In this document: positions 42,223 through 63,612 of the stretch, in pieces
Position numbering within the stretch: position 1 is the first letter of the stretch
How the letters are laid out: each line of letters starts with the position of its first letter
NCBI GenBank assembly: GCA_963768425.1
Contig: CAVYHV010000028.1
Location: 38,911-102,910, forward strand
Direction: 5' to 3'
DNA from: Candidatus Bathyarchaeota archaeon
GTDB taxonomy: Archaea > Thermoproteota > Bathyarchaeia > Bathyarchaeales > Bathycorpusculaceae
Length of the DNA stretch: 64,000 nucleotides
Notes under the pieces: generated by a model
Database searches by the model: none
What the model saw: only the letters and a program-made list of their open reading frames with translations
What the model was told of the DNA's origin: nothing
Made by a program: the position numbers and the translations under genes

Positions 42223-42269
42223 TTGTATTGCTCCTCCAAAACGTTATATTTTGAGTTAATTCTGACATA

Positions 42270-43167: not shown

Positions 43168-43179
43168 GACTGTTTCATC

Positions 43180-44119
43180 TCCTCAAGCTTTAACCTGCTG
43201 ATCCGCGACTCATCCTCCAAAGCAGAAAGTCGGGCAAAAACATTAATTATTAAAGCGACAACAAACAGAATCAATGCAATCTCAATTATTGACGATCGAA
43301 AAAGCCCTTGGGCTTCGCCAAATTCATTCGCTATCAGGGAAGCTAAAGTGTATCCCGCCTGAAAACAGATTTGCAGAAATCTTAGGGGTGTTTCCGATTA
43401 CCATGGTCACAGCCATTGTTTCGCCAACGGCGCGTCCTAAGCCCAGAACGAAGGCACCAAATATTCCTGACCTGGCATATGGCAGGACACTTTTCTGTGT
43501 AACTTCCCAGTCTGTTGCGCCAAGCGAGTACATAGCTTCTCGCTGACTATTTGGAACAGCATTTAAGACATCCCTTGAAACTGCAGACATCGTCGGAATA
43601 ATCATTATCGCTAACATGATTCCAGCGGTAAAAAAACTCGTTTGCGAGAGGATGTACCCGCGAATAAGGGAAAGACTCCAAGTGAGTATGTCAAAGGCAT
43701 CTCAACATATTTCTGTAAAAGGGGATTAGAACAACTAACCCCCAAAGACCATAAACGACACTGGGCACAGCTGCCAGAAGATCAACCAATATTCCCAAGC
43801 GCGTAACCAGTTTTCGATGAGCTTTTAGCTTTTCCGTGATAAAGATAGCTACTCCCAGACTAATTGGAAGCCCAATCAGGATAGCAATAGCAGACGTCAA
43901 CAAAGTTCCATAAATAAAAGGCAAAGCACCAAATAGTTCATGATCTGGGTCCCATTTTGTCCCAACCAAGAAACTTGGCCCGAATTGGATATTGAAGCAG
44001 CTGACCCGATAAAGAGTCCTAAAGCAAGAGCAACAAGAAGACCAATAATAAAAAAGGCTGCTGCTGCAAGACCTATTTTTACAATTGTATCTCCTCTTAC
44101 CAGTGTGATTTCACTTCAT
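43180..44119 (-). CDS. pstC: Phosphate ABC transporter permease PstC (several frameshifts; ends approximate)
   Basis: WDP...FGALPFIYGT, LAAVPSVVYGLWG, LGLGRAVGETMAV. Confidence 0.9.
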
Positions 44120-44175
44120 CGCTTCTTTTTCTTGATTAGTATAAAAAAAAGAGATAGATTGCTTTTAAGTTTAGC

Positions 44176-45456
44176 TTAGAGCGGTATTTGGGTTCCGTTG
44201 TAAGTAATCAGCGCAATTGTTGCGGTGTCGATGGTGACTATGTTAGCTGGCAATGGAGCGTAGCCTAAGGTTGTGCTGTATGATTGTCCTTGGTTAATGA
44301 CCCATGTGAAGAAGCTGACGACAGCGGCGCCTTGTTGTAATTGGATTGTGCTTCATAGACTAAACCGTAAGTTAGGGTAACAATTGGGTAGATACCTGTG
44401 TCGGTTTTATCGTTGTAGGTGTTGTCAATGATAGAGACACTTGACCAAAATGCGTTTCCTGCTGGAAGCATACCTGCTCCGGCTGCCAAGGTTGCTCCTA
44501 TATTTGACACGTTGGCTGAGGATGAAGTTGCCTGCAGCGTTTTCAACGGTTCCGTAGGAGATTTGGCCAGGATTTTCAATTCATAAGCGATTTCAAGCGG
44601 ACCAGCGCGCCAGTGTTTTCACCAATGTCCTGCGCAACACCGCCGTTTCCCTTATAGCCTGTACCAACTGGCCAGATGGAAGCTTGTACTTTCCAAGCGG
44701 TGTTCCAAGCTGTACTTGCGTCAGACAAGAAATCGGTGAAGGCAAACATTGTTCCGCTTGAGTCAGATCTGTGGATACGGTTATTGCGGTAGATTGGTAA
44801 TAGCAGCTACATCTGGGCTTTGCAACGCTATTATAGCGGGTCGTTCCAATTGGTTATGGTTCCTAAAAAGATGTTTGCTAGGACTGTCCGGTGAAGTTGA
44901 GACTTTGCATGTTGGACCGTTGAGAAGTTTTAGATTGTAAGCTGGCACAACTGCGCTGGCGGATAATGGTATTGTTAAGGCAGTTGGGCCAGCAGGAAGT
45001 CTGCGATGTCTGCTGTTTGAAGTGGCGCGTCCGATTCGCCGAAATTGTTGACTCCGCCTTGAAAATCAGTGATTCCTGCACCGCTTCCAACGGCATTGTA
45101 GTTTACTTCGACTTTTGGTTGATACTGATTGTAAGCTACTTGCCAATCTGCCATTAGAGGGGCGACAAGTGTACCTCCAGACCCCAGTAATCTGGGTCGA
45201 TGGCGCTGTTGTTGGACGGGAGTTGGAGAAGGAGTTGGAGTGGGAGAAGCGGTTGGCGTTGCGGTTGGTTTAGCTGTTGGGTTGGCTGTCGGGGATGCGG
45301 TGGGAGATGCAGTTGGGTAAGTGTTGCGGTTGGCGTTGGACTTGGAGTTGGGCTCGTCTTAGATGAATTTGAAGATAGATATGTGTAAGCGAATACGCTG
45401 CCTATAATGATAACGATAACTACTACTGCAATGGCTATCATGTATGTAGTTTTCAT
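44176..45456 (-). CDS. pstS: Phosphate-binding protein PstS (heavily frameshifted)
   Basis: N-terminal TM plus PT linker; HRSDSSGT and YPIVTLTY fragments; heads pstCAB. Confidence 0.8.
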
Positions 45457-45520
45457 TTTTTTACCTCTATTTTACAATCGACAATGTAGATTCTGTTGTT
45501 ATATCGATTCCCAACATAAT

Positions 45521-45538
45521 TATATAGACTATATAGAC
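45521..45538. promoter_or_regulatory. Palindrome TATATAG-W-CTATATA(GAC), copy 2
   Basis: tatatagactatatagac upstream of pstS. Confidence 0.65.
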
Positions 45539-45704
45539 GGAAAAACAGGCGAAAACACTAAAACCAACTGAAAAATCGTGGATCCAACTGCTAATCCACG
45601 CAGTGAAAAAAGGAAGTTGCGACCAATTTACCATGCCCATCATGGCGTTTTCCATAGAATTGGGATAATATTCAAAAGAGACATTTGGGCAATTCAATAG
45701 AACA

Positions 45705-46332
45705 ATGGTACCGATTCTGAACGTTAATTGGGAGAGCCTTCCATCAGAATATGACTTTAGCGGACGCGACGCAGACGTTATAGCGCTGATAGAAACGGAA
45801 GACTTAACCATATTCACGTTTGACGGGTTAAAACGAAGAACCGGATTGCATCCTGAAACGTTATCCCGTATCCTTGCACGACTTGAGCAAGAGGGCATAG
45901 TCAAGAAAGAGCATGAAGGCTACAGGGTTAGCCCAAAAATAACCAAGCTGAAACTTAACCAAACACGCAATGAAGAGACTGTCAACAACGCTGATCCAAA
46001 CTTTCCTTCCCTCAGACCTAATGACACAGCACCTTATACTTTCCCTCAGAGGCAAATGGTTCGGCATGCTGCGTTGGCTAGGCATCTCAGAAAACAATCG
46101 CGGCGTCACGTTAAAGTGGATCACTGAAGACGGCGGAATCCAAATAGCCGCGAACATTCAAGGAACAACGCTTAACATAGAAGCGAAGTTCTTAACAAAC
46201 AACGACTTGAACCTGGCGTTAAAAGCGTCTTACCAACTTATGGCGAACATAGGCAAGCTTTGTCAAGGCTCACATGCAATGGCGAGAAACGTGGCTTACT
46301 TCGGCGGCTCAAACTTCTACATGCCCGCTTAA
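45705..46332 (+). CDS. Winged-HTH domain protein (frameshifted)
   Basis: FTFDGLKRRTGLHPETLSRILARLEQEGIV. Confidence 0.7.
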
Positions 46333-49225: not shown

Positions 49226-49540
49226 TTATGTTTTGAGTCCATCGAGTCTTTTGCTAAGTTCTTCGAATACGAGACGCTTTTTTTCTTTGCTCAAATGAAG
49301 AATGATTTTAGATACCATTTCGTTGGAGATTGTGAAGATGTAGTTCAGTTTTATTACACTATCTTTTATGGCTCCCTCACTCTTTGTTAATGGTATTCCT
49401 TTCATCTTGAGGTTGCTAGTTACGCCTGCTATCACAACGTTTCCAAATTCTTCAAACAGGACTACCGCTGGTCTGGTCTTTACATCGGCGGTGTCCGTAA
49501 ACTGCACAGTTGCAACGATTAGGTCTCCGGCTTTAGGCAT
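49226..49540 (-). CDS. PemK/MazF-like toxin
   Basis: GDLIV..VQFTD....KTRPAVV...ITS-type pattern. Confidence 0.85.
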   Translation of the reverse strand: MPKAGDLIVATVQFTDTADVKTRPAVVLFEEFGNVVIAGVTSNLKMKGIPLTKSEGAIKDSVIKLNYIFTISNEMVSKIILHLSKEKKRLVFEELSKRLDGLKT

Positions 49541-49766
49541 TTTCCCAAGCCTCGTCTTCGGTGTTGTCCCATAGTTCCTTCATTTTTGCTTGTTGAATCT
49601 GGTGGATAAATTCATCGTATTGTCTTCTGTTTTTGGATTCTTTTGCCATTTTTATGAGGTTAGAGATAGTCTCATTGTAGGTTTCTCGGGGGTATTTTCT
49701 GATGCTTCTTAGCTCCTTGACTATAGACTTTTTGAGTTGTATGGTGGTGGCTTTTTCTTCACTCAT
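49533..49766 (-). CDS. Putative cognate antitoxin
   Basis: TTIQL...RETYNETI..L N-terminus, acidic WDNTEDEAW tail, overlaps the toxin start. Confidence 0.75.
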   Translation of the reverse strand: MSEEKATTIQLKKSIVKELRSIRKYPRETYNETISNLIKMAKESKNRRQYDEFIHQIQQAKMKELWDNTEDEAWENA

Positions 49767-50031
49767 TATACATCGCCTATAATTACCACATAACTCCCCA
49801 TAATAAACTTTATACTAAAAAGAACCATTAAACCATCAACGAAATTAACGTAGAAAGTTAGCTGATCCCGGGTCTAACTGGTGGTACCCAACCTAATCCG
49901 GTCTCTTTGAAGGGCATCCCGATGGCAAGTAGTAGAAGCTAACTCTCCTACGCACGATTTGACATCTTAATAGACGCAGAAGCAAGCTAGCTGCTCAAAA
50001 TGTACATCGCTGACAGGAGCCGCCGATTAAA

Positions 50032-50169
50032 TCAGACAAAGGCTCCACGGACTTTTTTTGAGCAGGCTACGCTAAAGTTTTTGAAAAGCTCCTTTTGCTC
50101 TGCCTCGTACTCATCAAATGCAGCTTTAAACTTCTCGAAACCTTCAACATCAAATTTTTCTTCACTCAT
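50032..50169 (-). CDS. 45-aa ORF, possibly a truncated viral gene
   Basis: MSEEKFDVEGFEKFKAAFDEYEAEQKELF...; GAGGTGA SD; same strand as the viral genes. Confidence 0.45.
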   Translation of the reverse strand: MSEEKFDVEGFEKFKAAFDEYEAEQKELFKNFSVACSKKVRGAFV

Positions 50170-50302
50170 CAAATCACCTCATTATCTTAAAACGATTCAG
50201 CAGCAGGAATATTGAACCCCAAATTGGCTGTTGAAACTAAATTTAGCTCCAACCCCAAATCTCCCAAACCTCAAATTTAAGTTGCCAAATTTTAAATAGT
50301 AA

Positions 50303-50806
50303 TTGGGACCACACCGTCCTATGCAAATTAAGGATTTAATCCGCTACAACCTCTTCGTTCGCGAGCTTTATTTTGACGCTATAGCTAAGTTGCCTTGGGC
50401 AGCGGTTGTTGAGCCTCGGGGTTTGAGTTTTGATTCCATGCGTGACGTTTTTTTGCATTTAACTGTGGTTGAGGACAGATGGATTGGCTTCGTTATTCTT
50501 GGAAGCAAAAAAGAGTGGGTTGGTTTAGATTTTGACGCTTTCAATGATTTTGATGCGTTGAAAAAATGCATGCAGCAGACAACGGAAAACACGGAAAGTT
50601 ATTTGGCCAAGCTTTCTGACGAGGAATTAAAAAGGGAAGTGGTTGTTCCGTTTGGCGATAAGCAAAAAATCAGCGTTGAAACAGTTTTGACCCACATAGT
50701 TATCGAGGACATGATTCACTACGGCGAGTTATCGGCTGCTTTCTGGCAGATGGGTTTGCAAGCACCTTACATGGCCTTTTGGCAATATAAACATCAGCAC
50801 CCTTAG
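50303..50806 (+). CDS. DinB/YfiT-like protein
   Basis: H....EDRW...LTHI..E..IHYGELSA. Confidence 0.85.
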   Translation: MGPHRPMQIKDLIRYNLFVRELYFDAIAKLPWAAVVEPRGLSFDSMRDVFLHLTVVEDRWIGFVILGSKKEWVGLDFDAFNDFDALKKCMQQTTENTESYLAKLSDEELKREVVVPFGDKQKISVETVLTHIVIEDMIHYGELSAAFWQMGLQAPYMAFWQYKHQHP

Positions 50807-50880
50807 GCTAACCCGAAAGGATAGAAGATAGCGAATCGCGAACTATACTTTTAATTAAGCAGACGAAAGATAGAAAAGCA

Positions 50881-51111
50881 CTAGAATGTGCTTGTGGCCA
50901 CAGTTTGTGCTTCACCGCTTATGTCGTTTGCGATGGTGCTTTTCAAGTAGCCCGTTCTGACTGGAACTAACGTGTTTGCAGTCGCTAAAATATTCTGGGC
51001 AATATTCATCATAGCTTGCCCAACCGCCTCCGGATACTGCTCACAAAGACAGCTCAGGCAATTCTTTTTTGCATCAAAATTCGACAAATTAACCTGGAGA
51101 GAAATACCCAT
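50881..51111 (-). pseudogene. HK97 gp10-like tail-completion protein, C-terminally truncated
   Basis: A..LVPVRTGYLKSTI motif; only 76 aa, ends next to dinB. Confidence 0.65.
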
Positions 51112-51228
51112 ATTGATTCACCCTAACCATCGGAATAGAATGAAGCGAATCTTCAGTTACACGCAAATAACTTAGCTAGAAAATTAATACTAGTTGCAGA
51201 TAATGAAGCTGGATAGGTCGATTACACT

Positions 51229-51708
51229 ATGAAGTCTCTGATAGTCTGTTACTCTTTCCATCACAATAACACTCAGAAGGTAGCTGAAGCTATGGCAAAG
51301 GTTCTCGATGCACAAATAAAGACTCCACTTCAAACAAACCCCGAAGAGCTTCAACAGTTTGACTTAGTAGGGTTCGGCTCAGGAATATTTGGAGAAAAAC
51401 ACCACGAAAGTCTGCTTGAACTGGCTGATAAACTCCCTCAAGTCACAGATAAAAATGCATTCATTTTCTCAACAAGTTTTGTGGGTGTTGATTCGCTGTT
51501 ATTTGGGAAAACTTCAGGTAAATTTCACACAGCACTTAGGGAGAAACTGCAATCTAAAGGCTACACTATTGTTGATGAGTTTAATTGCAAAGGCTTTAAC
51601 ACTAATCGCATCTATGGTCGGTTTGGTGGAATGAATAAAGGCAGACCTAACGCTGAAGACCTCAAACACGCTGAAGAGTTTGCTTCAAAGCTCAAAAATT
51701 CAATATAA
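51229..51708 (+). CDS. Flavodoxin family protein
   Basis: YSFHHNNTQKVAE, VGFGSGI, F.CKG, GRPNAEDL. Confidence 0.9.
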   Translation: MKSLIVCYSFHHNNTQKVAEAMAKVLDAQIKTPLQTNPEELQQFDLVGFGSGIFGEKHHESLLELADKLPQVTDKNAFIFSTSFVGVDSLLFGKTSGKFHTALREKLQSKGYTIVDEFNCKGFNTNRIYGRFGGMNKGRPNAEDLKHAEEFASKLKNSI

Positions 51709-51896
51709 AGGTCCCCTTTTTAGTAGCTTGAAAAAAACGATGCAGTCCCGCTGCATTCTCCTAAGCTATTTTCGTTACTCTGTGCTCTACAAGAACCTGA
51801 GAACCGTTTTTGTAAGTCACAATCCAAGAGCTAAATTTTGTCTTAAATTTCTGGTTTGCCGCCCTTTTTAGTTCTGCCATTCACTTCACCTGCCTA

Positions 51897-52334
51897 TTAA
51901 CTTGAGATGCTGAAGTAAACGGCGTCAATGTTGATCATAACGCGGGTTACTTCAGTTGCGTTACTGTGAATCGGCTCTCCGGTTACTGCATAGTTTGGGT
52001 CTTGTAAGTGTATGATGCGGGTAACTTCAGCCTGCAATGCTTCCAAAGTGGATTCTGCAGTGGCTAAATCGGCTGTGCTTTGGCTAGCGTTAACAACAAT
52101 TATGTCGACCACAAGTTTTTCGGTAACCAGGTAGCATTCGCGGCTAAGGGCGTCAACCTGCTTGCTAGGGCTCGCGTTATAGACAGCTACTTGCAAGGGT
52201 CCTTTTCCCTGAGTAATTCCAATTGCATCCATGCGAGTTGTAGGCCACAAAATATTCGCGGTAGCCACTGGACTTGATAGCTCCCAATTTTCCTGTAGCA
52301 ACTCCGAAACCGTTAAGGCTTGATTTACAGCCAC
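51897..52334 (-). CDS. Putative tail terminator/head-completion protein
   Basis: Size and position after the adaptor; no motif recognised. Confidence 0.45.
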   Translation of the reverse strand: MAVNQALTVSELLQENWELSSPVATANILWPTTRMDAIGITQGKGPLQVAVYNASPSKQVDALSRECYLVTEKLVVDIIVVNASQSTADLATAESTLEALQAEVTRIIHLQDPNYAVTGEPIHSNATEVTRVMINIDAVYFSISS

Positions 52335-52439
52335 CTAGGCTTTCCTCCGCCTTCTGCCGAAATAATAAAGAAGCCAACCTATCACGAAAAGCGCTATAGC
52401 AACAGGAATAAGCAGAAGCCCAAGTTTTCGTTTTACCAT
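52335..52439 (-). CDS. 34-aa single-TM peptide (MVKRKLGLLLIPVAIALFVIGWLLYYFGRRRRKA)
   Basis: Exactly fills the gap between two viral genes. Confidence 0.6.
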   Translation of the reverse strand: MVKRKLGLLLIPVAIALFVIGWLLYYFGRRRRKA

Positions 52440-52441
52440 TC

Positions 52442-52975
52442 CTAAAGCCCCATTCCCTTGCACCGAGGAATATCATGCCCTAACTTTGCTTCAGCGCCTA
52501 TGGCAACCGTTGAAAGATTCACCATATTTCGGGTAAAACTGTCCTGGAAGCTTTGCACTGCGCTTTGAAATGAGAATTTTCCAATGGTGCCTTTGGTTAC
52601 GAATAGGTCGCCAAGCTTGTAATCTGCCGCGCCCAAAAGCATGCCGCCGCTTGCAGCAACTAAAACGCTCATGCATGCAAGGTCTAAGGCGGCTAACTGC
52701 GCAAACGAGTAACGCGGATCCGTTGATGTTACGGTGGGCACCAAGCTGCCTATGTAGGTGTTCGCGTGATCAACGAATGCTTGGACGCTGTTGCTTGAAA
52801 CAGAAAGCCCATAAACCAGATAATTGCTGTTGCTATCTGGTCCGGTAGCATTTAGAAAGCCGATAACTTCTTCTAGCGAAGTTAACGCTGGGTAAGTTGA
52901 CGTGAAAAGTCTCCGTAAATTGGTTAATTTGAAGCCGGCTTTACGGTCCATAGTTAAAAGATATGGGCAAAACAA
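52442..52975 (-). CDS. Putative head-tail adaptor protein (true start probably near 52903)
   Basis: Directly after the MCP; F..HAN.YI...A.LAA..LAC...YKLGDL.V pattern. Confidence 0.55.
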   Translation of the reverse strand: MFCPYLLTMDRKAGFKLTNLRRLFTSTYPALTSLEEVIGFLNATGPDSNSNYLVYGLSVSSNSVQAFVDHANTYIGSLVPTVTSTDPRYSFAQLAALDLACMSVLVAASGGMLLGAADYKLGDLFVTKGTIGKFSFQSAVQSFQDSFTRNMVNLSTVAIGAEAKLGHDIPRCKGMGL

Positions 52976-52982
52976 ACTAAGC

Positions 52983-53881
52983 TTAACTAGTTGCTAACCC
53001 TGTGATCGCGGCTTGGCATTGACCGTTGAGTATGATCGGAGCATATCGGGTGCTGAGAATCGGCTTCACCAGTTCCTTGGATTTGAGCAGCTCAACATCG
53101 GTTGTGAGCGGTCTCTTCACGAGGAACATCCCTAGAGGGGCATAGGAAGCAGAAAGGTTCTTGCCTGTTGACAAGCAAATGATGGTCCCTGCGGGAACAA
53201 CGTTTGACCAGCAAAGTTCCCATTCGCCCAGCATCTGGATCGGCTTCTGAGTAATCGGCGAGATCTCGTTGCGGTATAGGCTGTAGTTAGGTAGGTTCTT
53301 GATGTCGCGTTTCTGGATCGGGTTGCAGACAATGGTGTCCATCAAAAAGTCTCCGGCGTTGATCAAAGCTTCAGCATTGTTGAAGTCTTCCATGCCTGCA
53401 GTGTTTGCCTTGGTGAATTCGGTGCCTGTTACAGTGATTGTTTTGCCGGTGCATCCAATGCTATTTGCGCTTGGAACTGCAGCAAGCATCACGGTCCAGC
53501 AGTCAAGTTCAATCTGATACGCCAAGACGTCTGGCTAAACTTTTCAGCTGTTGATTAACCACTGGCAAGTCAACGTCTTCAACGACTTCTTTAGGAATCT
53601 CCACGGCTTCCATACGTTTGTATGGGCTAATGGTAGCGTATTTCATAGGTGTGTAATCCACGGGTGCAGCGGTGCCTGGCGCAACTTCGCTTATGCCTAC
53701 ACTGTGAGAGCCGTTTTCAATCGCGTAAGTCTTAGTTCGGCCATGCTTCAAAACGTCATCTGTGAGTAGTCTTTTCAAGAATCAGGTTTGGCATAGTCAT
53801 TTCTATGATAACCTGGTTCAGTTCTGGATACTGAATCGCAGCACTATCAACAAAGGTTAGAGCGTCTTCTACAAAACTCAT
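52983..53881 (-). CDS. Major capsid protein, HK97 fold (frameshifted)
   Basis: About 300 aa combined; EVAPGT..P....K....IPKEVVED...IVCNP...RY pattern; synteny. Confidence 0.75.
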
Positions 53882-53957
53882 TTTTCTTTTTTCCTCCAAA
53901 AATAATTATTTTGATTTTTCTTCTCGCTTTCAAAAAAACTGAAAGGGTGATCCTCGG

Positions 53958-54431
53958 TTACCCGAAGATTATTTGAACTTGCGCGTTATTTGCGCCACCA
54001 ACAACTACGACTCCGCGTCGATTCGACAAGGCATTGATGATTGCTGCGAGACCTGAAGCTGTGATTACTCCTGTGGTTGTGTTCGCTGTGATTGTTGCGC
54101 CAAGAGCTGCATCAGTAGTAGCTGCCAAAGCGGCTATGCCGCCGTTAGCTGAAACGACTACTGCGCCTGCTGATAATGTGCCGCCTGAAGTGTTCTTGCA
54201 GCGTATCCTGTGACCGAAGACATAGACGTTAAGCAGTTGATTGCCAAAAGTGTCTACGGGAGGCACTGACTGGACAAAGCCGACGAACGCTGCGTTAGCG
54301 CCTGCGCATAAGCTGACTGCGTTATTGCTTGAGACGTAGACTGGGTCGCCTACTGCGGGAGATGTGTAGCCTGAATCTGCTAGGAAAGTCTGCTCTAAAT
54401 CTGGAATTACTTTAGGTCCTGACACCGTCAA
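53958..54431 (-). CDS. Capsid decoration/cement-like protein
   Basis: Ala/Gly-rich, VGDPVYVS...FVG; between scaffold and MCP. Confidence 0.55.
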   Translation of the reverse strand: MTVSGPKVIPDLEQTFLADSGYTSPAVGDPVYVSSNNAVSLCAGANAAFVGFVQSVPPVDTFGNQLLNVYVFGHRIRCKNTSGGTLSAGAVVVSANGGIAALAATTDAALGATITANTTTGVITASGLAAIINALSNRRGVVVVGGANNAQVQIIFG

Positions 54432-55521
54432 AACTCAACTTTATTCTGCCCTCCTCAGGGTCTGTATGCGTTATATCCGCGGTTAAGCTGCCCATGCGTT
54501 TCGCAGCAGCAGCTAATTCGAGCCCAGCTTTCTTCAAACTGCCCTTCGATGCAAACATGTTGTTTAGTCGTTGAGCGTCATCGATTCCTGGCGCCCTACG
54601 CCTGCACCAGCCGGGTCCCGACATGCCTTTCCCGTTTGGTCGAGGCTTAGGAACTGCGGCTTCAACTGCTGCTTTGACAGTTGTTTCTATCTTAGCCTCT
54701 AGTTTTTTTTCATTTTCCGCAATGGCTGCTTTGCAGGCATCCATGATCTGCGTTGTATTCTTTGTTAATTCGTCTTCTAGCTGTTGATAGGTCAATTCCG
54801 TGCCAGCTTTCGGTTTTTCACCTGGAGCTGTCGGAGCGATTGGTGGCTGATTTTCACTTGAACTCATTTTATTTTTTTCTCCTTTTATTTTGTTAAGCCC
54901 GTGTAAGTCAGGCTGTAACTTTGCTTTCAGATCTTTTAGGCCACAAGGGCACCGCGACTTATCCGCACACTCACAGACAGAGGCAACAAGCCCTTGGCGC
55001 TGCGATTCATCCATAGCAGCCGCAAAACCCTTCAAATGAAAATTGTTATTTTCGTAAGCCCCCTCAGCAACAATACTGAGTTCTACGCAGCGCGGTTGAT
55101 GCACGATCTCCCAGGCGCCGGCGCAGAGGTGAATCATCACCATGTTGGCGTCTCGGGTTTTACCCTGGCATAAGCTGCAGACAATGTTATCTGAGACGAC
55201 TTTGGGGCTAACCATATGGAGATATTTCTTTTCAATCTGGGTCAATAAGTACGGGATCGCCAGAGACTTCAGCCTCAAAAAAAACTTGTTCCCTACACGC
55301 TTAGTTTTCGAAACTACGCCCTTTGACGTCTTCCACGTGATCCCCGTGATTAATCCTGAGCTGAGCTTTTGCGAGTGAAGAACAAAAATAGTCTAAATCT
55401 TGCTCTGGGACCTGCCAACGGTTTTTGTTAACTGAAGAATCAATTGCTTGCCCCTCGATAATGCCAGTTTTCCTTAGATCATCTAGGCTGGCTTTTACAT
55501 CAACATCATAGAGCAATTCCA
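54412..55521 (-). CDS. Prohead maturation protease fused to scaffold (frameshifted)
   Basis: IEGQAID...NKN, RINH, VSP, ELSIV.EGAY; coiled-coil C-terminus. Confidence 0.75.
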
Positions 55522-55671
55522 AGCTTATTCTACACCCGTTTTTCTCTAACTTTTTTGATAATTTGATCTTGACAAAATATGGAAACAAAATGTTTTTACT
55601 GAACAGCAGCTTTTGAGTTAGTGGTAATATTTTTGGACCGTAAAGAAGCAGTTTTAGTTGAAGGTTAAACC

Positions 55672-56106
55672 ATGATCTCAAAGATTTCCAAAGGAACAGG
55701 AACAAAATTCTCCAGAGTTGCCCTCATACTTGCTATAGTGATGATTGTGAACGTCGTGATAATCATCCTTTTGACTCCAATCGGCTTTGAGACCCGCCCG
55801 ACATCCGCCTTGAAGACGCTCGGCTACATTGCGATTACTACTATTTTTGTCGGTCTCGCACTGGACTTGACGTCAATTGTCCTTCTGTTCAAGAGAATCA
55901 GAGTTAGATTAGCTTCAAGTCTTGTGATCATTAGCTCGGTCGCCTTCCTCTTGGTCGTTTTGGTAGATCGAACCGGGTCCTTCTTCTCGGTACCAACCCC
56001 TCCTGCAATTAACCACCTCGAATACATCTTCGCTCCCGTATTGATCGTGACTCTCATTATAGCGTCATTGGTCTACAGAGAGAGTAAGCCAACTTCAAGC
56101 AATTGA
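55672..56106 (+). CDS. Four-TM membrane protein inserted antisense within the viral module
   Basis: Hydrophobic ORF with GFETRP motif. Confidence 0.7.
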   Translation: MISKISKGTGTKFSRVALILAIVMIVNVVIIILLTPIGFETRPTSALKTLGYIAITTIFVGLALDLTSIVLLFKRIRVRLASSLVIISSVAFLLVVLVDRTGSFFSVPTPPAINHLEYIFAPVLIVTLIIASLVYRESKPTSSN

Positions 56107-56189
56107 CTTTGGTCGAACTCCAGACACAGAATCCGCAACAAGCTTTCGACAATTGCTGCATTATTTCCAGCTTTCACACTCATACAACT

Positions 56190-56487
56190 TCAAGCATTTT
56201 GAAAATCTGACTGCTTAACACAGTAACATGCGCAGTTCGGGTGTACATTGCAGGCGAAGGTATCATCCGCGACAAATTCACCGTAGGGGAAAGATATCCC
56301 GTAAATCATCAGGGTCTTCCAGCTCATATTCGTCGCCGTCGTAATCTTCGCATTTTTGGCAGGTGTTAGGGTTCTTGGAGTTGTAGAAGCGCCAGGTAGA
56401 GAATTTCATGTTAGGGTTAACAACTGCAGCTTCCAAAGCTCTTACAGCACGAACCGCGTTAACGGCTTCAAGGCAGAGCTCGCACAA
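56190..56487 (-). CDS. SPP1 gp7/MuF-like minor head protein, C-terminal domain only (frameshifted)
   Basis: TCQKC..YDG...HPNCAC motif after frame correction. Confidence 0.7.
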
Positions 56488-57912
56488 GATATGACGCCCC
56501 GTTTCCGTCTTTGACTAATTTCGTGGGAAACCCACCAGGCGCTTTCTTGGGAGCTCCAGGTGTCTCAAACTGCCGCCCTTCAGGCATCATTGGCGCCGGA
56601 GCGGGCACAGACTTCAAAACTCCATCGATCTTTTCGGGTAAGCCTAATTCGCCACGAGCCTCTTTATCGCCCATCAACATGTTATTGTATAGGTCAATTA
56701 CGCGGCTCATCTTGACGTCTGTGGGCGGCTCCCAAATCGGCTTCCATTTTATCTTCGGGATCTTATCCGGTATGATCAAGGCTTCAGGGAATTCGCCGCG
56801 TAAGATTAATGGGAAAAGCTGCATTTCATAGACGCCGCTGCGGTGTTTCTGACGCATACGAAGCCTTGTTATGAACTCCTGCATTACGATGTCTGCCGTG
56901 GCACGATTTGCGCCTTCAACATCCCCGAGAAAAATCTTAGGTATGCCAAGTTGGCTGTCACGTTGCCTCTCAAGGTATTCGATCCACCATTCTGCCTTCA
57001 GGTCCTTGGTTAAGGAAGACATTGGCGTGACCTCGACGTCGCCTCTTACTGTCAGATCCGTGCCTTGATCACGCGAAGCCAATGTATTAGACATAACATC
57101 TAGTTGTGGGTCGCTCCATGGCTCAGGCATCCCGGGTGCACCGTTCCCACCGCATTTAGCGATGAGCATTGGTTTGGTGTAAACTTTCATGATTTTAGCC
57201 ATGTCAACTTGGAAGTCATCAATTAACGCTTGAATATGCAATATGCTACGCAGGGAAGAGGTCCCGTAGGCATTCTCAAAGAACCAGCTGGAAACGTTAT
57301 TGAGTGTTCGATAGATTTCTTCAGGGTCAAAAACTACAGGCGGGTAGACTCTGCAGCTGAGCATAGCCGAAAATGTTTTTGTAGCAGTCTTGGCGAATCC
57401 GCATATATTCAGGGTCAAGGGTTTTTAGCCACAGTACCTTGGCTCCATATTCATCCATCACTGGCTCAGTATAACTGGTGCCGAAAACCTGCGCGTCTTT
57501 CTCTTCGCTTCGCATTGTATCCAAGCATATCATGGGATTCAAGCCATTCTTCTAAGAAATCGCGGAAGGTGTTTGTGCCGCCTTCCAAAGTGAACCCGTT
57601 TGAAATCTCCAAGTTAACTTTGACGTCAACTGAAGCCTGGATACGCGGGACAAAAGAGTATAATGCCTTGAACTTCGGCAGGTCTTCAACGGGTGTGACT
57701 CCCCAGATGCGATCCCAAAGTGACGTGTATGGGCTGCTGACAAAGCCGATCCCTGAAGCTGCCAAGTTGTAATTGTTGACGTACTGCATTAAGTTCCAGT
57801 CGCCACGCCAAGCAACAGGGACCTCTGTTTCACGCTGCGAAACTGCTACTGCATTTGGCACGTTGCGTAGCGGGTTAGGCATCGTCAATGAGAGATCTTT
57901 TCTAAGAGGCAT
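56468..57912 (-). CDS. Portal protein (frameshifted near 57420-57500)
   Basis: YGTSSL, LGIPKIFLG..EGANRATA, EARGELGLP; follows TerL. Confidence 0.85.
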
Positions 57913-57920
57913 TTAGGCAC

Positions 57921-58112
57921 CTATTTCTTTTCTTCAACTTTAGGCGTCTCAACTTCAGCGGATATCTCAACTTCATCAACTACGATATCTCGCATCAAGT
58001 CCACGCCGTTAATTTTAAAACGTAATTTACCCATGCGAACGTTCGCAACTTCCAAGCCGAGAACCTTAATGACTTCATCTTTAGCATTGGCAGAAAGCAA
58101 AACTTTATCCAA
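57921..58112 (-). CDS. Hypothetical viral protein (63 aa)
   Basis: Fills the gap between TerL and portal. Confidence 0.55.
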   Translation of the reverse strand: MDKVLLSANAKDEVIKVLGLEVANVRMGKLRFKINGVDLMRDIVVDEVEISAEVETPKVEEKK

Positions 58113-58114
58113 AC

Positions 58115-59611
58115 TTAATCATCCTCGTTTAACGTTGGTTTTTTCTTAACTACGGCTACGCCTTTTCCTTCAGGCATTGACGTTACTCCAAGTAGATTTC
58201 GAGCCATGACTTCAACGCAGTCTAAAGCGTCGTCATGTGCACTTCTTGGGAACTGGACCCATTGCTGAAAGAATTCGCTTTGGCTATACATCCAGGCGGG
58301 ATTGATGGTCATGCGTTTAGATTCAAAATGGCTGCTGAGTGGGATTAATCGTTCTTCTTTGCCTTTTGAGGTTACTGTGGGAACAATCGGCAGGCCTTGC
58401 AGCTGGGGCATGTACATGATGACTTTTTGGAAAGCGTTTGATTCAACGTAAATTTTGCTGTAGTTGTGGATCCCGTGAAGTTGCAGAATTAACTGCATAG
58501 CTGCAGGATACGGCAAGAGCTTAGCATAAACGTCATAAAGATATGCTCGATTTAGGACCCGATCATAACTTGCGGTGCTGATGGCAAATAAGTCGCCTTC
58601 GCCGAGAGCTGGATCAATCCCCGCGTATTTTGGCAGGTTAGGTGAAGGCACAAAGTTATTCTCTGTTTCATTCCAGGGATGCAGCCATTCAGCCTTAAGC
58701 AAATCGCCAGTCATGCTTGTTGGGTCATTTTGGTATTGGCTGTTAAAGTAAACTGTGCCGATATCGGCTTTTTTCTGCATTAACCGTTCATAAGGCCACA
58801 CTTCAGGCCAAAGAACCTGAGGCGCCTCGCCCTTCTCAACGTTCTCATAATTCTGGATCGCACGGTAAATCCTATAAGGCCAGCCTTTGCCGCCTTTCTC
58901 CGGAGGCGAAATCAAATCATTATAAAGATCGGCATAATGCCACCGGGTCCCAATCACCAAAGTTGCGCCATGGGAAAACAGGGTTGTCAACAGGAGTTTA
59001 AAGAACCATCGACTAGCCTTCTCAAGCTGATTAGGAGTGTTAACGTTCTCCTCATCAATTATGTCGTCAGCGATTATCACATCGAAGCCGCGGCCAGTTA
59101 ACGAACCGCCCAAACCGCAACCATACAAGGTAGCAAACTTACTGATGACCTTGCGATTAACAAAAAATTCGCTGTCAGTCCATTTTTGAGGGTTCTTAGG
59201 TTTTAAATCGCCAAAAACACTGATAAATCGCGGATCATTTTCGATTCGATTTCTTATCGCAGCGACAGTTTGCTCAGCCAAAGGAGCGGTTTTGCTGACA
59301 ATCCCAATTCTTATTTCAGGATAATTCCCAATTAACCAACTGGGATAATTAATAGAAACGCACTCACTTTTCGCGTGCTTTCGTGGAGCCTCAAGATGAA
59401 ACTGTTTTAGCGCCTTCGTATGCCAAGGCAAAGGGCTAAAATGGGCGGGATCATTGGCCGGCTGAAGCAGATTATACCATTCATCTTGAAACCAAGCAGT
59501 GTCGACGTAACCCATATACCGCGCAAAATACTGCAGACTACTTCGGGCCAGCTGCTGTCTCTTCTCTTGTGAGAGCCTCTTCAGCTCGTAAAAGGGCATT
59601 TCTCTCATCAT
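58115..59611 (-). CDS. terL: Terminase large subunit
   Basis: APRKHAKS Walker A, LTGRGFDVIIADD Walker B, GTRWH, GIDPA and HDDALD nuclease motifs; intact ORF. Confidence 0.95.
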   Translation of the reverse strand: MMREMPFYELKRLSQEKRQQLARSSLQYFARYMGYVDTAWFQDEWYNLLQPANDPAHFSPLPWHTKALKQFHLEAPRKHAKSECVSINYPSWLIGNYPEIRIGIVSKTAPLAEQTVAAIRNRIENDPRFISVFGDLKPKNPQKWTDSEFFVNRKVISKFATLYGCGLGGSLTGRGFDVIIADDIIDEENVNTPNQLEKASRWFFKLLLTTLFSHGATLVIGTRWHYADLYNDLISPPEKGGKGWPYRIYRAIQNYENVEKGEAPQVLWPEVWPYERLMQKKADIGTVYFNSQYQNDPTSMTGDLLKAEWLHPWNETENNFVPSPNLPKYAGIDPALGEGDLFAISTASYDRVLNRAYLYDVYAKLLPYPAAMQLILQLHGIHNYSKIYVESNAFQKVIMYMPQLQGLPIVPTVTSKGKEERLIPLSSHFESKRMTINPAWMYSQSEFFQQWVQFPRSAHDDALDCVEVMARNLLGVTSMPEGKGVAVVKKKPTLNEDD

Positions 59612-60000
59612 CCGAAAACTTACTCAAATCAACCATTACTTCAGTTCCTTCAACCTTCACTTGTTGAGCAATATTCACATGTACCTCAGGATTTTTCCTT
59701 GGAGTAAGTTGCTCAATCTGACGGTAACGATACTCAAGCCTGACTTTGCGGTCCTCTTCCAATGCGATATCAGCGTCCTGCTGACGCTTAAGCTCCTCAA
59801 GCTCTTCCTCAGCAGTAATGCTCTGCAGGTCACGTTTGATAGTGGCTTCACTCCAGGTTACGCCTGTTTCGTCAGCAATCCTTCGCTGAATATCCAAAAT
59901 CTTGTAACCAAGCTTTCTCAACTCGATAACTCGGCGCCGACGAGCAGCTACCTTAAGCTCAAAAGTTGATCCGTGACCAGGTTTTGTCTTCTTTTTCAGC
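59538..60000 (-). CDS. Terminase small subunit-like HTH protein
   Basis: RRRRVIELRKLGY....IQRRI......SEATIKRDL; overlaps the TerL start. Confidence 0.7.
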
Positions 60001-60178
60001 GCATTTCAGCTCATTTTCCAACTTCACAATGATAGCAAGCGACCTTTCCCTACGCAGTCGCTGAGCTTCAAGATCTAGAAAAGGCAAAGCTGGAAGAGAC
60101 GTCATTTCTCAGGTTCCTTCACTTGTTTATCTTTGCTCTTATCGCAAGGCTCTTCACAATCACTGCAACGCTTAGGCA

Positions 60179-60526
60179 TTAAAACCCCTTCAGAAGCCAA
60201 TACTCTAAAAGCCCAGTTAATGCGACGCCAACGACCAGGGCGCCAAATGCTTTAAGGTTGCTAACCCAACTCTTTTGGATAGCCTCATCAGTCCGTTCTT
60301 GCTGTTGACATTTGTAGAGCTCACTAATTTTATCAAAAAGAGTCCGGATAACGCCGCTGTTCAATCCTGTTAGATCCTCGCCAAGCAGCGATTCCAACGC
60401 CTTGTTAATTTGAACAATTACCTGGCGGCTTTCAGCATTCGCCTGAGTGTTTAGGTTAATCTGCGTGATGTAGGGACAATGAGGATTCTTGCAGGCATCA
60501 CCGCACAATTCCTTGTCATAAGCCAT
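60179..60526 (-). CDS. Hypothetical coiled-coil protein with C-terminal TM (holin-like architecture)
   Basis: Single C-terminal TM; function inferred from architecture only. Confidence 0.5.
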   Translation of the reverse strand: MAYDKELCGDACKNPHCPYITQINLNTQANAESRQVIVQINKALESLLGEDLTGLNSGVIRTLFDKISELYKCQQQERTDEAIQKSWVSNLKAFGALVVGVALTGLLEYWLLKGF

Positions 60527-60786
60527 TAAGAAGCATCCTCAATAAGCAGCTTAATCGTAGTGGGTGACTCACCAAGCGGGGAAGTCAAAACCTCACCGTA
60601 CTCAGCTAAATGCTGCGTAAAACCCAGCCTATCCTTCAACTGAGCCATAACTTCCTCCTCGTTTTCTGGCGTGTAAACCGTCTCTGACAAGAGCCGATCT
60701 TTGAAACTGTACGTTAACAGAATGTTCCTGATCTGTCGTCTCTCTTGCTTGCGAAGTTTAGACTCAAGACTACTGCGTTTACCCAT
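60526..60786 (-). CDS. Hypothetical viral protein (86 aa)
   Basis: GAGGTG SD; coupled to the next ORF. Confidence 0.55.
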   Translation of the reverse strand: MGKRSSLESKLRKQERRQIRNILLTYSFKDRLLSETVYTPENEEEVMAQLKDRLGFTQHLAEYGEVLTSPLGESPTTIKLLIEDAS

Positions 60787-60916
60787 CCAAGAAACACCTC
60801 TCCATTATTGGTTACAGCTGTACACTCCACTTTCCTTTTGGGCCCTGTGAAGCTGGATAAGGGGGGCTGCAACCATTAACTTAGCGAGTTAGCCTGCAAA
60901 ATACCTCACGAACAAG

Positions 60917-61051
60917 CTATTTAAGCTCTAACGGTTGCTTCGTTGTCTTCTTAAGTGTGTGCACAAGTTTTCCCCAGCATTTACGGCAATATCCACTCTT
61001 ATTTGAATGAGAAAGTTTGTTATTGCAGCCCTTGCCCTTGCATCTAGGCAT
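60917..61051 (-). CDS. 44-aa zinc-finger-like protein (MPRCKGKGCNN...GYCRKC)
   Basis: Read manually; GGAGG SD; Cx4C...CxxC. Confidence 0.55.
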   Translation of the reverse strand: MPRCKGKGCNNKLSHSNKSGYCRKCWGKLVHTLKKTTKQPLELK

Positions 61052-61540
61052 TGACTGCGCCTCCAAATTTACTCTTGGGAATGTACTGCAGAGTGACGGT
61101 TAATCGGTTTTTGCTGTTTGATGATCGAATTTCCCGATTTATTCGGCTGTCGGTTCTTCCGCCGCTAATATGACCGACACGCTTAACCTTCCAATTGGAA
61201 AGATTGCCGTGAACAAGCTGCGGGTTAGTTGTCAAAAGGTAGAATGGCAAGTTAATTTGGCTCGTGTAAAGTTCAGCTATGAAGTTAAGAAGGCGCTTCC
61301 CAATCCCCACACCCTGATAATCAGGCAGGACCACTAAACGCGAAACACGATAATAATTGCTTTTCATGCGTATATGAGCAACTGCGATAAAGGCAACAGG
61401 CTTCTCGCCGTACTTTGCAACATAACAGCGCACTCCAGCACCAAGCCGCTTAGTGTTCAGATAGTGATGCTCCCTAAACACCTGCCACATGGATAAACCG
61501 CATTTATGCACTGATAAATTGATTGTTGGGTGACATCGTT
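61044..61540 (-). CDS. GNAT acetyltransferase domain (-1 frame continuation of the ATPase)
   Basis: W..F..HHYL, RVSRLVVLPDYQGVGIG. Confidence 0.85.
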
Positions 61541-62163
61541 TTTTTTTACCGTTGTGTAATCGGTGAATTCTCCGGTATCCGTGTTGTAGATCCAGTCAGG
61601 TTCCAGCCAGTCTAAAACGTCAAAGTGGCATGTTACAGCGATAAACTGTTTTTCAGGTTGATGCCTAACCGCACGACTAATCGCGTAAGACCCGACCTGG
61701 GCAACTGTTCGGTCAACGACACTTGTGAACTCATCAAATACCACGAGCTGTTGAGGCAGACAGAGTGCATGTGCAATGTCAACTCGCATTTTTTGCCCTT
61801 GGCTAAGGTAACTATAAGCTTTCAGCCAGCTGGGCGGTTCACTGAAACCACTGCTACATAATGCGGCGCCGATAGCGCTAGGTGTGAGGGCAGCTGGAAA
61901 ATCGTTAAGGAAACAGGGTTCTTTGTAGCGTTCTTTGAGGTCTGCATAATAAGCCTCTGGCCAGCAGTGTTTTGCGATGCTTGTTTTGCCGCTGCCGCTG
62001 CTGCCGACAAGAACCCCGATTTGCCACTTTAAACCTTCAATCGGAATGTTACCTTTAATGCGCTTTTCCAATTTGACTTCTTTTAAATCGTAGGTGCCGA
62101 TACTGCTTGTTCGCGGTAAGTGTTGCCTGCGTGCCAAGTGTAAGTAAAATCCCAACTAGGCAA
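61457..62163 (-). CDS. Soluble ABC-type ATPase of the viral ABC-GNAT type
   Basis: GSSGSGKT, LSQGQKMR, VFDEFTSVVDR, VTCH.D...WL.PDW. Confidence 0.88.
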
Positions 62164-62193
62164 AAGTTAGCATCTCCAAGTTTTTGTCTTCAA

Positions 62194-62760
62194 TCATAAG
62201 TTAAGCACCCTTACTTTCCAGCCTTTAGCGGCAAGTTCCTCAAACTTTGCCTTCTGCTCAGCCTCATCTTTACAATCGATAACGAGCTCATAGTTTTCTG
62301 GGATCATGTTTGAACCCTCACGCGGACCGCCTAGTTCCTCTGGGAGCTTCTCGCCAACGGCAGCCAGCAAGGCTTTCAAATCATCCTTCTCGCCAGCCTC
62401 GATAATTCGTATGTACTCGGCGCTGTCGAGCTCCCTGCTATGCTTGCCTTTGAGTTTGTTTAGAATTTGCCGAAGCATTCTTCGGTCAACATCAGAGACT
62501 GGCAGCCGCAACACTGGAGCAAAAAACTCATTGTGGGCCTTGCATACCTGTGCTCGCTGCTCGCCATCAGCAAAAACGCCATCCTTATTCGTTATGATCG
62601 GGTACGTCCAACCGTATTTCTGAAGACTTTGCCAAATTTGCTCTTGCTGCTTCAATGTCATCTTGTTCGGATTCTGCTCATCCGACTTCAATAGGCGAAT
62701 ATCTGCAACCAGAGGCAAATAAGCCTCCGGAACCTGAATTGTTGTCTTTTTCTCAGTCAA
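62194..62760 (-). CDS. ParB/Srx N-terminal-domain protein
   Basis: NPNKM......SL.KYGW..PII......DGEQR. Confidence 0.8.
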   Translation of the reverse strand: MTEKKTTIQVPEAYLPLVADIRLLKSDEQNPNKMTLKQQEQIWQSLQKYGWTYPIITNKDGVFADGEQRAQVCKAHNEFFAPVLRLPVSDVDRRMLRQILNKLKGKHSRELDSAEYIRIIEAGEKDDLKALLAAVGEKLPEELGGPREGSNMIPENYELVIDCKDEAEQKAKFEELAAKGWKVRVLNL

Positions 62761-62802
62761 GCTGGCATCAAATTTAAAATTTGACTTTGGAGAGAAAAAG
62801 GC

Positions 62803-62841
62803 TGTTGTTAGGTCTTAACAACAATTGTTAAATATTAACAA
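62803..62841. promoter_or_regulatory. Two tandem TTGTTA-N5-TAACAA inverted repeats (candidate operator)
   Basis: tgttgtta-ggtct-taacaaca and ttgtta-aatat-taacaa between the divergent parB and RHH genes. Confidence 0.75.
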
Positions 62842-62868
62842 CCTGAGAAATATTGAGAGAACCAGTAA

Positions 62869-63003
62869 ATGCACAAACACCCCGTTAGCATAGCCCTCTC
62901 AAACCGCATACTGCAAAAAATAGATCAAGAAGCCACACGTCAGAAAAGGTCAAGAAGTGAATACGTTGAGCTTCACTTCGAAGATGTTTTCGCTAATCAA
63001 TGA
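62869..63003 (+). CDS. CopG/ribbon-helix-helix regulator, 44 aa
   Basis: Read manually: MHKHPVSIALSNRILQKIDQEATRQKRSRSEYVE. Confidence 0.8.
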   Translation: MHKHPVSIALSNRILQKIDQEATRQKRSRSEYVELHFEDVFANQ

Positions 63004-63009: not shown

Positions 63010-63612
63010 TTACGTCAAAACGCTTTTCTTTTTCAATCTAAGATAAGCTGTTCCCGTCGCCGACGTCGCCACTATTGCAATGATCGCTATTATAACATAT
63101 TCAGTGGGCAAACCGTTGCCTAAGAAACCCGAATGAAGCGTTGGAATTAGAGGCGGATTATCCGTTGCAAGATAGGTGCTCGGCACTTGAATCCAAGTGC
63201 CGTTATAGTTTAGCCAAATATGGTACAAAATTGGAATTCCCGTTGGGGTATATTCCAAATTCGGCACATTGCCGCCATCAAAGCCGCCGTCGATGAAGCC
63301 GATTTGAGTGGAATTATTGACTGGAAAAGCTGGTCCTCCAACGGGTACTGTTCCTGAGCTTATTATTTGGTTTGCCGTTGGAAGATTTGGCCAGGAAGCT
63401 GCTATTTGACTGTTGCTCAAAGGAATAGTTTCCCATTGATAGGTGACGTGTGGTGGAAACAATGCGAAATACGCGATTGGTGCTATAAGCAGAGCCACAA
63501 TTTCTATAAACAAAACACCCGCTACCACTGGAGAAGATAGCCTTGTCGAGTTGTTTAGAATAGGTTTGGTGGGTTGTGGACACCATCTTCGAAGTTTTCT
63601 TAGAATGTTCAT
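63010..63612 (-). CDS. Two-TM membrane protein with N-terminal RRWCP motif
   Basis: TM, extracellular region, C-terminal TM plus KKK. Confidence 0.7.
   Translation of the reverse strand: MNILRKLRRWCPQPTKPILNNSTRLSSPVVAGVLFIEIVALLIAPIAYFALFPPHVTYQWETIPLSNSQIAASWPNLPTANQIISSGTVPVGGPAFPVNNSTQIGFIDGGFDGGNVPNLEYTPTGIPILYHIWLNYNGTWIQVPSTYLATDNPPLIPTLHSGFLGNGLPTEYVIIAIIAIVATSATGTAYLRLKKKSVLT

Follow-up and report, generated by a model that had tools for sequence, protein, structure and literature searches.

The window analysed here is a stretch of 64,000 nucleotides (nt) from the genome assembly of a Candidatus Bathyarchaeota archaeon (G000:C28:38911-102910), and its positions 50018-63003 very probably hold a truncated, decaying provirus of a head-tailed (HK97-class) archaeal virus whose tail arm has been deleted. 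The assembly comprises 2.96 Mb in 33 contigs, is 91% complete and contains an archaeal 16S gene; contig C28 is 102,910 bases long, so that base 64000 of the window is the end of the contig. No tRNA genes were found within the window. The original prediction, made from the letters of the window alone, had described a head/packaging module lacking tail and integrase genes and had left two origins side by side, a provirus eroding from the tail side and a domesticated device resembling a gene transfer agent (GTA). The first is borne out by complete relatives, which have tail genes, and by the collinear deletion scars of these genes in the window.

Relatives were collected by a scan of IMG/VR with the large terminase (TerL), which yielded 62 loci. 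In the five closest (L023-L027), TerL was 81-88% identical to that of the window, and these contigs were syntenic with it at 73-91% nt identity. In the two longest of them, L026 and L027, the genes from portal to completion gene were each one open frame, encoding 480-483 (portal), 353-364 (protease/scaffold), 159 (structural protein), 298-304 (capsid), 153-156 (adaptor) and 145 (completion) amino acids (aa), and L024 agreed as far as it extends. One capsid-protein homologue was labelled Candidatus Bathyarchaeia by its source. The longest close relative, an IMG/VR contig of 23,173 bp (G061; 63% complete by the CheckV estimate), showed what follows the completion gene: in order, a gene for a helix-turn-helix (HTH) membrane protein, a gp10-like gene (121 aa), a tube-like gene (147 aa), an antisense NosD-like gene, a chaperone-like gene (157 aa), a tape-measure gene (462 aa), a 131-aa gene and a YqbQ-like baseplate gene truncated where the contig stops. 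The gp10-like protein matched PF04883 (E 3.4e-7) and phrog_5 Neck1 (E 5e-15), and eight PHROG tape-measure families matched the tape measure. Contigs C4 and C5 of the sister genome G016 had the same order in open frames, starting at the adaptor and running up to the gene that follows the tape measure, with a 94% identical tape measure; C4 also had the portal-to-capsid genes, and on C5 the tail closed with a 674-aa YqbQ/laminin-G protein followed by host-like genes. The provirus of genome G079 was tried as a further comparison and set aside as unhelpful, its TerL being 72% identical and its tail set different.

Aligned with these relatives, the window was found to keep three remnants of the tail arm:

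50881..51111, minus strand: scar 1, codons 2-70 of the gp10-like (Neck1) gene fused in frame to the last 20 codons (128-147) of the tube-like gene, from alignment to relatives
50056..50190, minus strand: scar 2, start of the chaperone-like tail gene, from the ribosome-binding region to codon ~45 (in aa, 78% identical over codons 10-45; in nt, 77-88% identical to L088 and to C4 and C5 of G016)
50018..50048, minus strand: scar 3, a 31-nt tape-measure fragment collinear with scar 2 (87% identity to L088 5788-5818, 96% to G016:C4)

At scar 1 the two homologies overlap at 50924-50944, a short microhomology, and 0.57-0.64 kb is lost; between scars 2 and 3, ~1.46 kb is gone. Scar 3 was seen only when blastn was run with word size 7. 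Homology to viral DNA reaches no further than 50018, and a DinB-family gene to the right of this point thus lies inside viral DNA. As the window holds three collinear scars, at least three deletions took away the tail arm. In a tblastn search of G000 at E <= 1e-3, the tape-measure gene and the next two genes, taken as the G061 proteins, had no match. A degenerate pattern of the gp10::tube junction, searched by exact matching, occurred once in the window and in 0 JGI metagenome contigs and 0 species-representative genomes, two collections that possibly do not include the G000 records. The gene that the original prediction had called a truncated gp10-like gene is indeed truncated and is actually a gp10::tube fusion, with two further tail remnants beyond it; likewise, its statement that no recognisable tail genes follow is right for whole genes and has to be amended for the three remnants.

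A sequence of events that would produce this arrangement starts from the left arm of a temperate virus, carrying the regulator, the ParB, ATPase and GNAT genes, the terminase, and the head and neck genes. Integration would have put the regulator/ParB end beside a cellular membrane-protein gene. One deletion of ~0.6 kb at the short microhomology would then have joined gp10 to the 3ʹ end of the tube gene, another of ~1.5 kb would have brought codon ~45 of the chaperone gene next to a distal tape-measure segment, and the last would have removed everything beyond tape-measure codon ~356, including the distal host junction; we infer this order and mechanism from the scars. The element would no longer be able to make virions, would have no visible means of excision, and presumably has no present function.

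The order of head and packaging genes claimed in the original prediction is real. The module lies on the minus strand at 50.0-63.0 kb, with the gene of a ribbon-helix-helix (RHH) regulator divergent from the rest. Families were assigned by Pfam and PHROG profile searches of the open reading frames (ORFs) of the module, and labels were checked by folding the proteins of intact relatives with AlphaFold and comparing the models with Foldseek; the two neck genes (adaptor-like and completion-like) were named solely from position and conservation. From the regulator towards the scars, the features are as follows:

62869..63003, plus strand: RHH-type regulator, 44 aa, leftmost gene of the viral genome (PF15919, E 0.0011; phrog_3431 Arc-like repressor, E 0.0059; weak matches only)
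62803..62841, no strand: two palindromic operator-like sites, 20-22 bp apart, between the RHH and ParB genes (repeats I6, with 8-nt arms, 100% complementary, I10, with 7-nt arms, 100%, and D1)
62194..62760, minus strand: ParB-like protein (phrog_620, E 2.5e-11; phrog_498, E 1.4e-13; 85% aa identity to L026)
61044..62155, minus strand: ABC-type ATPase (61457-62155) and GNAT acetyltransferase (61044-61511) in overlapping ORFs (phrog_11143, E 1.4e-50 and 1.8e-28; PF00005 and PF00583)
60179..60786, minus strand: two small ORFs of 86 and 115 aa without family match (84.5% nt identity to the copy on G016:C8)
59538..59921, minus strand: putative small terminase (TerS), 127 aa, named by its position before TerL, without family match
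58115..59611, minus strand: TerL, intact, 498 aa (phrog_38, E 2.4e-95; 81-88% aa identity to the five IMG/VR contigs)
57921..58112, minus strand: conserved ORF of 63 aa separating TerL from the portal (62-75% identical in aa to its L026 and L027 counterparts)
56468..57912, minus strand: portal, in three frames, with +1 shifts close to 57522 and 57346-57354 (phrog_9232, E 2e-9 for the piece in the window and 5.7e-16 for an intact relative; frames read against an intact 480-aa relative)
56193..56514, minus strand: small MuF-like minor head gene, in two frames (PF04233, E 0.0029 and 2.4e-4, both under the Pfam cut-off)
54412..55528, minus strand: putative prohead protease/scaffold fusion, in at least two frames (without profile match; intact at 353-364 aa in relatives)
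53958..54431, minus strand: virion structural protein, possibly a decoration protein, intact (phrog_4588, E 1.1e-4; 98.7% aa identity to L027)
52983..53899, minus strand: major capsid protein, predicted HK97 fold from a relative, in three frames (+1 shifts near 53781 and 53527)
52442..52975, minus strand: head-tail adaptor-like gene, intact (87% aa identity to L027; 87-88% nt identity to copies on G000 contigs C14 and C16; without family match)
51897..52334, minus strand: head completion-like gene of 145 aa, intact (90% identical in aa to the L027 gene; without family match)

The intact TerL, the portal and the gp7-like (here MuF-like) gene of the original prediction were recovered in this way, and a model of the relative's capsid protein agrees with its major capsid protein. 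This relative is 92-98% identical to the window pieces, and its AlphaFold model (predicted local distance difference test score, pLDDT, 64.6, moderate) had its best Foldseek matches among phage capsids, HK97 heads and encapsulins (E 1e-11 to 1e-9), indicating an HK97-type fold. PF25209 was present in 26 of 27 capsid homologues; in a test on this capsid protein, its score was under the cut-off. The proposed decoration protein stands as a structural protein, for which decoration is a possible label. For the protease, the model of a 364-aa relative (pLDDT 50.2) matched the T4 gp21 prohead protease over its N-terminal ~160 aa (E 9e-4), with herpesvirus proteases next in the match list and a long C-terminal helix after the N-terminal domain; a search of its profile by sequence against the PDB gave no meaningful match. 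This low-confidence model weakly suggests the protease/scaffold label.

The TerS assignment is backed by its position and by the likeness of its C-terminal 67-72 aa, and only these, to the 221-225-aa gene before TerL in relatives (43-45% identity); a family match was not obtained. The N-terminal HTH-like part differs from L027 6279-6944 and from L026 6485-7162. Judged from the alignments, this pattern is as expected if the DNA-recognition domain had been swapped and the TerL-binding end kept.

At the regulator end, the predicted double operator was found in the 108-bp spacer between the RHH and ParB genes, which contains palindrome 1, TGTTGTTA-N5-TAACAACA, at 62803-62823 and palindrome 2, TTGTTAA-N3-TTAACAA, at 62825-62841. 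A 63-aa RHH homologue occupies the equivalent place in L026. Since the division of ATPase and GNAT into two ORFs recurs in L024, L026 and L027, it is not an error in the window. The two ORFs overlap in different frames in the window and in L027 (by 34 nt in the latter) and are separate in L026, and the phrog_11143 profile (357 positions) covers both, so the pair is either a split gene or a case of programmed frameshifting. The trio of ParB, ABC-ATPase and GNAT genes occurs at about six places in G000, the others being C14:276166-279450, C6:222028-223572, C9:906-1597, C14:7100-8670 and C16:8400-10030. No module ORF matched a primase or replicase in the Pfam and PHROG searches, as claimed for replication genes in the original prediction.

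Both ends of the element adjoin cellular DNA:

63010..63612, minus strand: right flank, cellular rather than viral, encoding a membrane protein of 200 aa (a gene of the sister genome G004 is 90% identical in aa and 93.6% in nt)
49226..49766, minus strand: left flank, PemK/MazF toxin and antitoxin (PF02452, E 4.3e-7; weak DUF7557 and VapB-like matches), the pair that had been noted at this side

The junctions lie at 63020 on the right and at 50018 on the left, where the PemK pair and then conserved host genes follow. Homology to viral contig L026 ceases at 62990, within the 3ʹ end of the RHH gene; homology of the flank gene to G004, which has no TerL match, ends at window position 63020; and on G144:C9 host histidine-kinase genes adjoin the ParB side of a related provirus. 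Taken together, these three observations indicate that the viral genome has its natural left end on the RHH/ParB side, and beyond the contig end probably no viral genes are missing. No att-like repeat was detected joining the two ends, the longest exact direct match being 8 nt, compared with 8-13 nt in 200 shuffles. The module contains no PF00589 integrase; six matches lie elsewhere in the genome, the nearest at C28:18180-18707, ~70 kb off. This search and the shuffle test agree with the original prediction that integrase and att repeat are absent. Since PF00589 exceeds its cut-off in only one of the five longer IMG/VR relatives, the missing integrase is weak evidence for anything. In G016, integrase matches lay outside the C4 provirus, inside the C5 provirus as a broken copy, or 12 kb beyond the tail genes of the latter.

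In the comparisons with genomes G074 and G016, host synteny extends as far as PAP2 at 47.5 kb, and the sequence beyond maps to other G000 contigs at paralogue-like identity; a clean unoccupied site was sought through synteny with G074, G016 and G004, and none could be defined. The orthologue of the right-flank gene in G004 sits in an 8-kb island with a NosD-like paralogue (G004:C49:50245-58231; L128, L129), between two stretches that are contiguous and partly inverted in G000:C8, that is, beside a C8-like region. This arrangement suggests that the surface-protein locus itself is a rearrangement hotspot.

Four head genes of the window are broken into several frames when compared with intact relatives: the portal (-2, -3, -1), the MuF-like gene (-2, -3), the protease (-1, -2) and the capsid gene (-1, -2, -3). 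Frame changes were read manually from alignments, as automatic chaining drops overlapping pieces and undercounts them. The module has six net frame changes, all of them +1, and base-level alignment to L027 resolved single inserted bases at non-homopolymer sites; nonsense substitutions were not found in the module. The insertions are placed near 53527, 53781, 54421, 54451, 55246, 55332, 57346-57354 and 57522. Host genes in the same part of the contig were affected as well. Compared with four sister genomes, PstS, PstC and PstA had two frame changes each, and PhoU, a 207-aa gene and a 356-aa gene one each; an ABC ATPase at 37134-37827 was split (one change), and KdpA was in three or more pieces. 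The host density was at least 10 changes in 9.2 kb (37.1-46.3 kb), compared with 6 in ~12 kb of the module, and 37-53 kb ranked in the lowest 1-5% of 689 genome segments of 8 kb for cover by long ORFs; other contigs scored better. The broken host genes in 8839-13022 and 37134-46329 are kdpA, fragments of kdpB/kdpC, the ABC ATPase, pstS, pstC, pstA, phoU and two others, and these two stretches of C28 ranked in the lowest 1-10% of the genome by the same measure.

Contigs with virus relatives at 93-99% identity were obtained from public soil runs of two studies (X1-X4). They do not carry the extra bases at 53522/53527, 54421, 54449, 57346-57354 and 57521; the extra bases of the portal were absent from X1, X2 and X4 contigs. 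X1-X4 had no depth on 46.6-49.0 kb, on the DinB gene or on most of 62.8-64.0 kb. As the host flank is uncovered, these runs do not represent the strain of G000, and they neither support nor disprove the junctions or frameshifts of G000 itself. Because host genes are broken as densely, all changes are +1 and the public contigs have no extra bases, the broken frames of the portal, the MuF-like gene, the protease and the capsid gene probably stem from consensus errors in an error-rich part of the assembly. A homopolymer-error idea, suggested by an A9 run near the ATPase/GNAT junction, was rejected, as that split is conserved in short-read viral contigs and the indels lie outside homopolymers.

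The ratio of nonsynonymous to synonymous substitution rates (dN/dS) against L027 was 0.056 for TerL, 0.05 for the structural protein, 0.089 for the completion gene and 0.127 for the adaptor. In the portal, two larger segments (421 of 487 aligned codons) gave 0.037-0.038 and a 66-codon segment between frame breaks 0.26; the capsid gene gave 0.07-0.09 over 265 of 308 aligned codons and 0.22 on 43 codons, and the protease 0.08 and 0.245, the latter for most of the gene. Since the portal, the largest capsid segment and the structural protein differ from the nearest relative by a dN of only 0.010-0.015, any loss of constraint is recent. The stubs gave 0.278 (gp10, 58 codons) and 0.125 (chaperone, 36 codons), values from segments too short and too mosaic to date the loss. 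The low dN/dS reflects the past of an active virus and cannot date the truncation. If the frame breaks are errors, the head genes would be recent orphans and not genes that died long ago.

Two more related head modules, each starting at a contig end, are found in G000 on C14:1-9300 (L096) and C16:1-10000 (L095). Both proviruses have a T4-type (Terminase_6) TerL and capsid proteins ~41% identical to that of the window, and in nt their adaptor and completion genes share 87-88% identity with window 51761-52993. C14 begins exactly where homology with window position 51761 begins, and C16 begins inside the tube gene. Compared with the window, these proviruses reflect head-module swapping on a shared neck and tail.

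Several observations weigh against a simply decaying provirus. Most head genes are under strong purifying selection (dN/dS 0.04-0.13), as selective retention would give, and the three large deletions all spare them; by a rough estimate, the chance of this is ~0.3 if deletions are random, which carries little weight either way. The junction at 50018 is without independent support, X1-X4 having no depth on the host flank at 46.6-49.0 kb, and the contig stops 1 kb past the module. At 57521, 11.3 of a depth of 26 in X1 does not show the base left out. Finally, the C14 provirus copy, among others in the same assembly, has intact frames, so that the error rate would have to be uneven.

The last two points bear on whether the frameshifts are real, in which case the head genes would be pseudogenes too and the element old and fully dead. 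We regard this as unlikely. Six net frame changes across four essential head genes are what such an element would show, and the open frames of the other provirus copies and the mixed X1 depth fit it as well; however, pst, phoU and kdp next door are broken at least as densely, insertions of a single sign with no nonsense mutation make up all the changes, and the related short-read contigs are without extra bases. Moreover, substitutions usually outnumber indels, and the dN of 0.010-0.015 is lower than expected had six neutral indels accumulated.

It is quite improbable that the provirus is complete in the cell and that its tail arm was dropped or mis-joined during assembly on account of the sequence shared by three related proviruses. 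The starts of C14 and C16 within the shared region would fit such an artefact, contigs of G144 and G016 also end in or near these proviruses, and this part of C28 is error-rich, with a host flank lacking independent cover. However, the shared stretch is just 87-88% identical, too diverged to collapse, and the scars lie within continuous sequence, collinear with relatives, one of them an in-frame fusion at microhomology. The stretch of gp10, flavodoxin and completion genes is also carried by X2-X4 contigs at ~99% identity.

We give even less weight to a head/packaging module kept by selection, be it a GTA-like device or a satellite that forms capsids and uses the tails of related proviruses in the genome. 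The gene set from regulator to completion gene is whole, with all frames open if the frameshifts are errors, most head genes have dN/dS of 0.04-0.13, and the neck genes shared with C14 and C16, at capsids only ~41% identical, make a fit to tails in trans conceivable. Against this, the low dN/dS was inherited from the time of the active virus, and no second truncated copy exists for measuring selection after the loss. The scars are untidy leftovers with no clean module boundary, the truncated architecture was not found in the two public collections, no integrase, replication module or att repeat was found, and the G061 proteins detected no tape-measure, distal-tail or baseplate homologues in G000. 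The TerL type occurred in only 5 of the 119 other genomes of the genus (G016, G020, G079, G097 and G144), and in G016 the syntenic copy was on C8, and the region matching the host surroundings of the window (pst to PAP2) was on G016:C5. This patchy distribution at other loci, together with the unique fusion junction, argues against a conserved GTA-like module. Both outcomes that the original prediction had named in advance as speaking against its proposal, a strain-specific locus and complete, tailed relatives showing simple deletion, were thus observed; a third, real frameshifts, probably was not. The C8 copy in G016 (G016:C8:254446-257319; L003, L006, L007, L009, L010) has its TerL in five pieces, with residues ~286-498 present twice, owing either to a ~0.75-kb partial duplication or to an assembly artefact near the contig end.

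GTAs of the RcGTA type retain tail genes, occupy a conserved locus throughout a clade through vertical inheritance, and package DNA of the host. The element shares with them a chromosomal head/packaging cluster without integrase or replication genes; it differs in its deleted tail and its scattered occurrence, having neither a conserved locus nor a complete particle set. Phage-inducible chromosomal islands that form capsids (cf-PICIs) are bacterial elements with integrase, regulation and replication modules and att sites, and they recur as a family. As far as the source describes them, they have genes of their own for terminase, portal, protease, capsid and connectors and take nothing but tails from a helper (10.1101/2022.09.08.507074). 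The module of the window likewise has its own capsid and packaging genes and no tail genes, but its tail scars show descent from a complete virus, and neither an integrase, a replication module and att sites nor a recurring architecture was found. There is a very slim chance that the tail-less module, with its frames open, may still build DNA-filled heads under the RHH switch, to be completed by tails of the C14 and C16 proviruses. If true, the module would represent, in archaea, the equivalent of satellites that form capsids and steal tails, seen shortly after a deletion had derived it from a full virus, and it would be the first archaeal tail-stealing element.

The truncated provirus is closest in kind to defective (cryptic) prophages. 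Like them, it is a contiguous subset of a tailed-virus genome with deletion scars, has lost one end and the means of excision, and is strain-specific; it differs in its archaeal host and in keeping the whole head module while only the tail arm is lost. Defective proviruses appear from the account of a study on 38 head-tailed proviruses from archaea to be less well documented in archaea (PMC11705971), and a defective archaeal provirus was inferred earlier (PMC10848311, PMC11705971). Head-tailed viruses and proviruses of Bathyarchaeia described in these two reports include 'Fuxiviridae', 'Kunpengviridae' and eight Bathyarchaeia proviruses (PMC10848311, PMC11705971). By gene content as described there, the element resembles them in being of Caudoviricetes type, with an HK97-fold capsid, portal, TerL and tail genes (PMC10848311, PMC11705971).

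Three genes run antisense to the module and look like cargo:

55672..56106, plus strand: 144-aa membrane protein in a ~640-bp insert that is absent from L023, L024, L026, L027 and G016
51229..51708, plus strand: flavodoxin (PF12724, PF12641), in the slot between the completion gene and gp10
50303..50806, plus strand: DinB-family protein (PF05163, E 3e-14), in the slot between the tube and chaperone genes

The membrane-protein gene has a paralogue at C6:196538-196989 (78% nt identity) and is covered by X2-X4 contigs at 97-99%. The flavodoxin gene is covered by X1-X4 contigs at ~99%, and one X1 contig skips 51107-51748. The DinB slot is occupied by the NosD-like gene in G061, and X1 contigs join 50184 to 50874. 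Cargo in relatives comprises NosD-like, DUF7347 HTH-membrane, BsuPI-like and NHL genes, at L088 861-1766 (sense strand) and 2691-4076 and at L027 8411-9127, 10854-11384 and 14626-15459. Across the virus family, host-like cargo sits in at least six different gaps between structural genes, is antisense in all but one, and differs between relatives.

For this assembly, single-base frame breaks cannot be read as pseudogenisation, since pst and kdp are also hit, and pseudogene calls need read support. The value of the finding lies mainly in a correction, in that an archaeal module with the look of a GTA very probably reflects simple decay by deletion, with three scars that can be mapped. A soil archaeal head-tailed virus family, probably of Bathyarchaeia, is documented as well; it carries antisense cargo and swaps head modules on a shared neck and tail.

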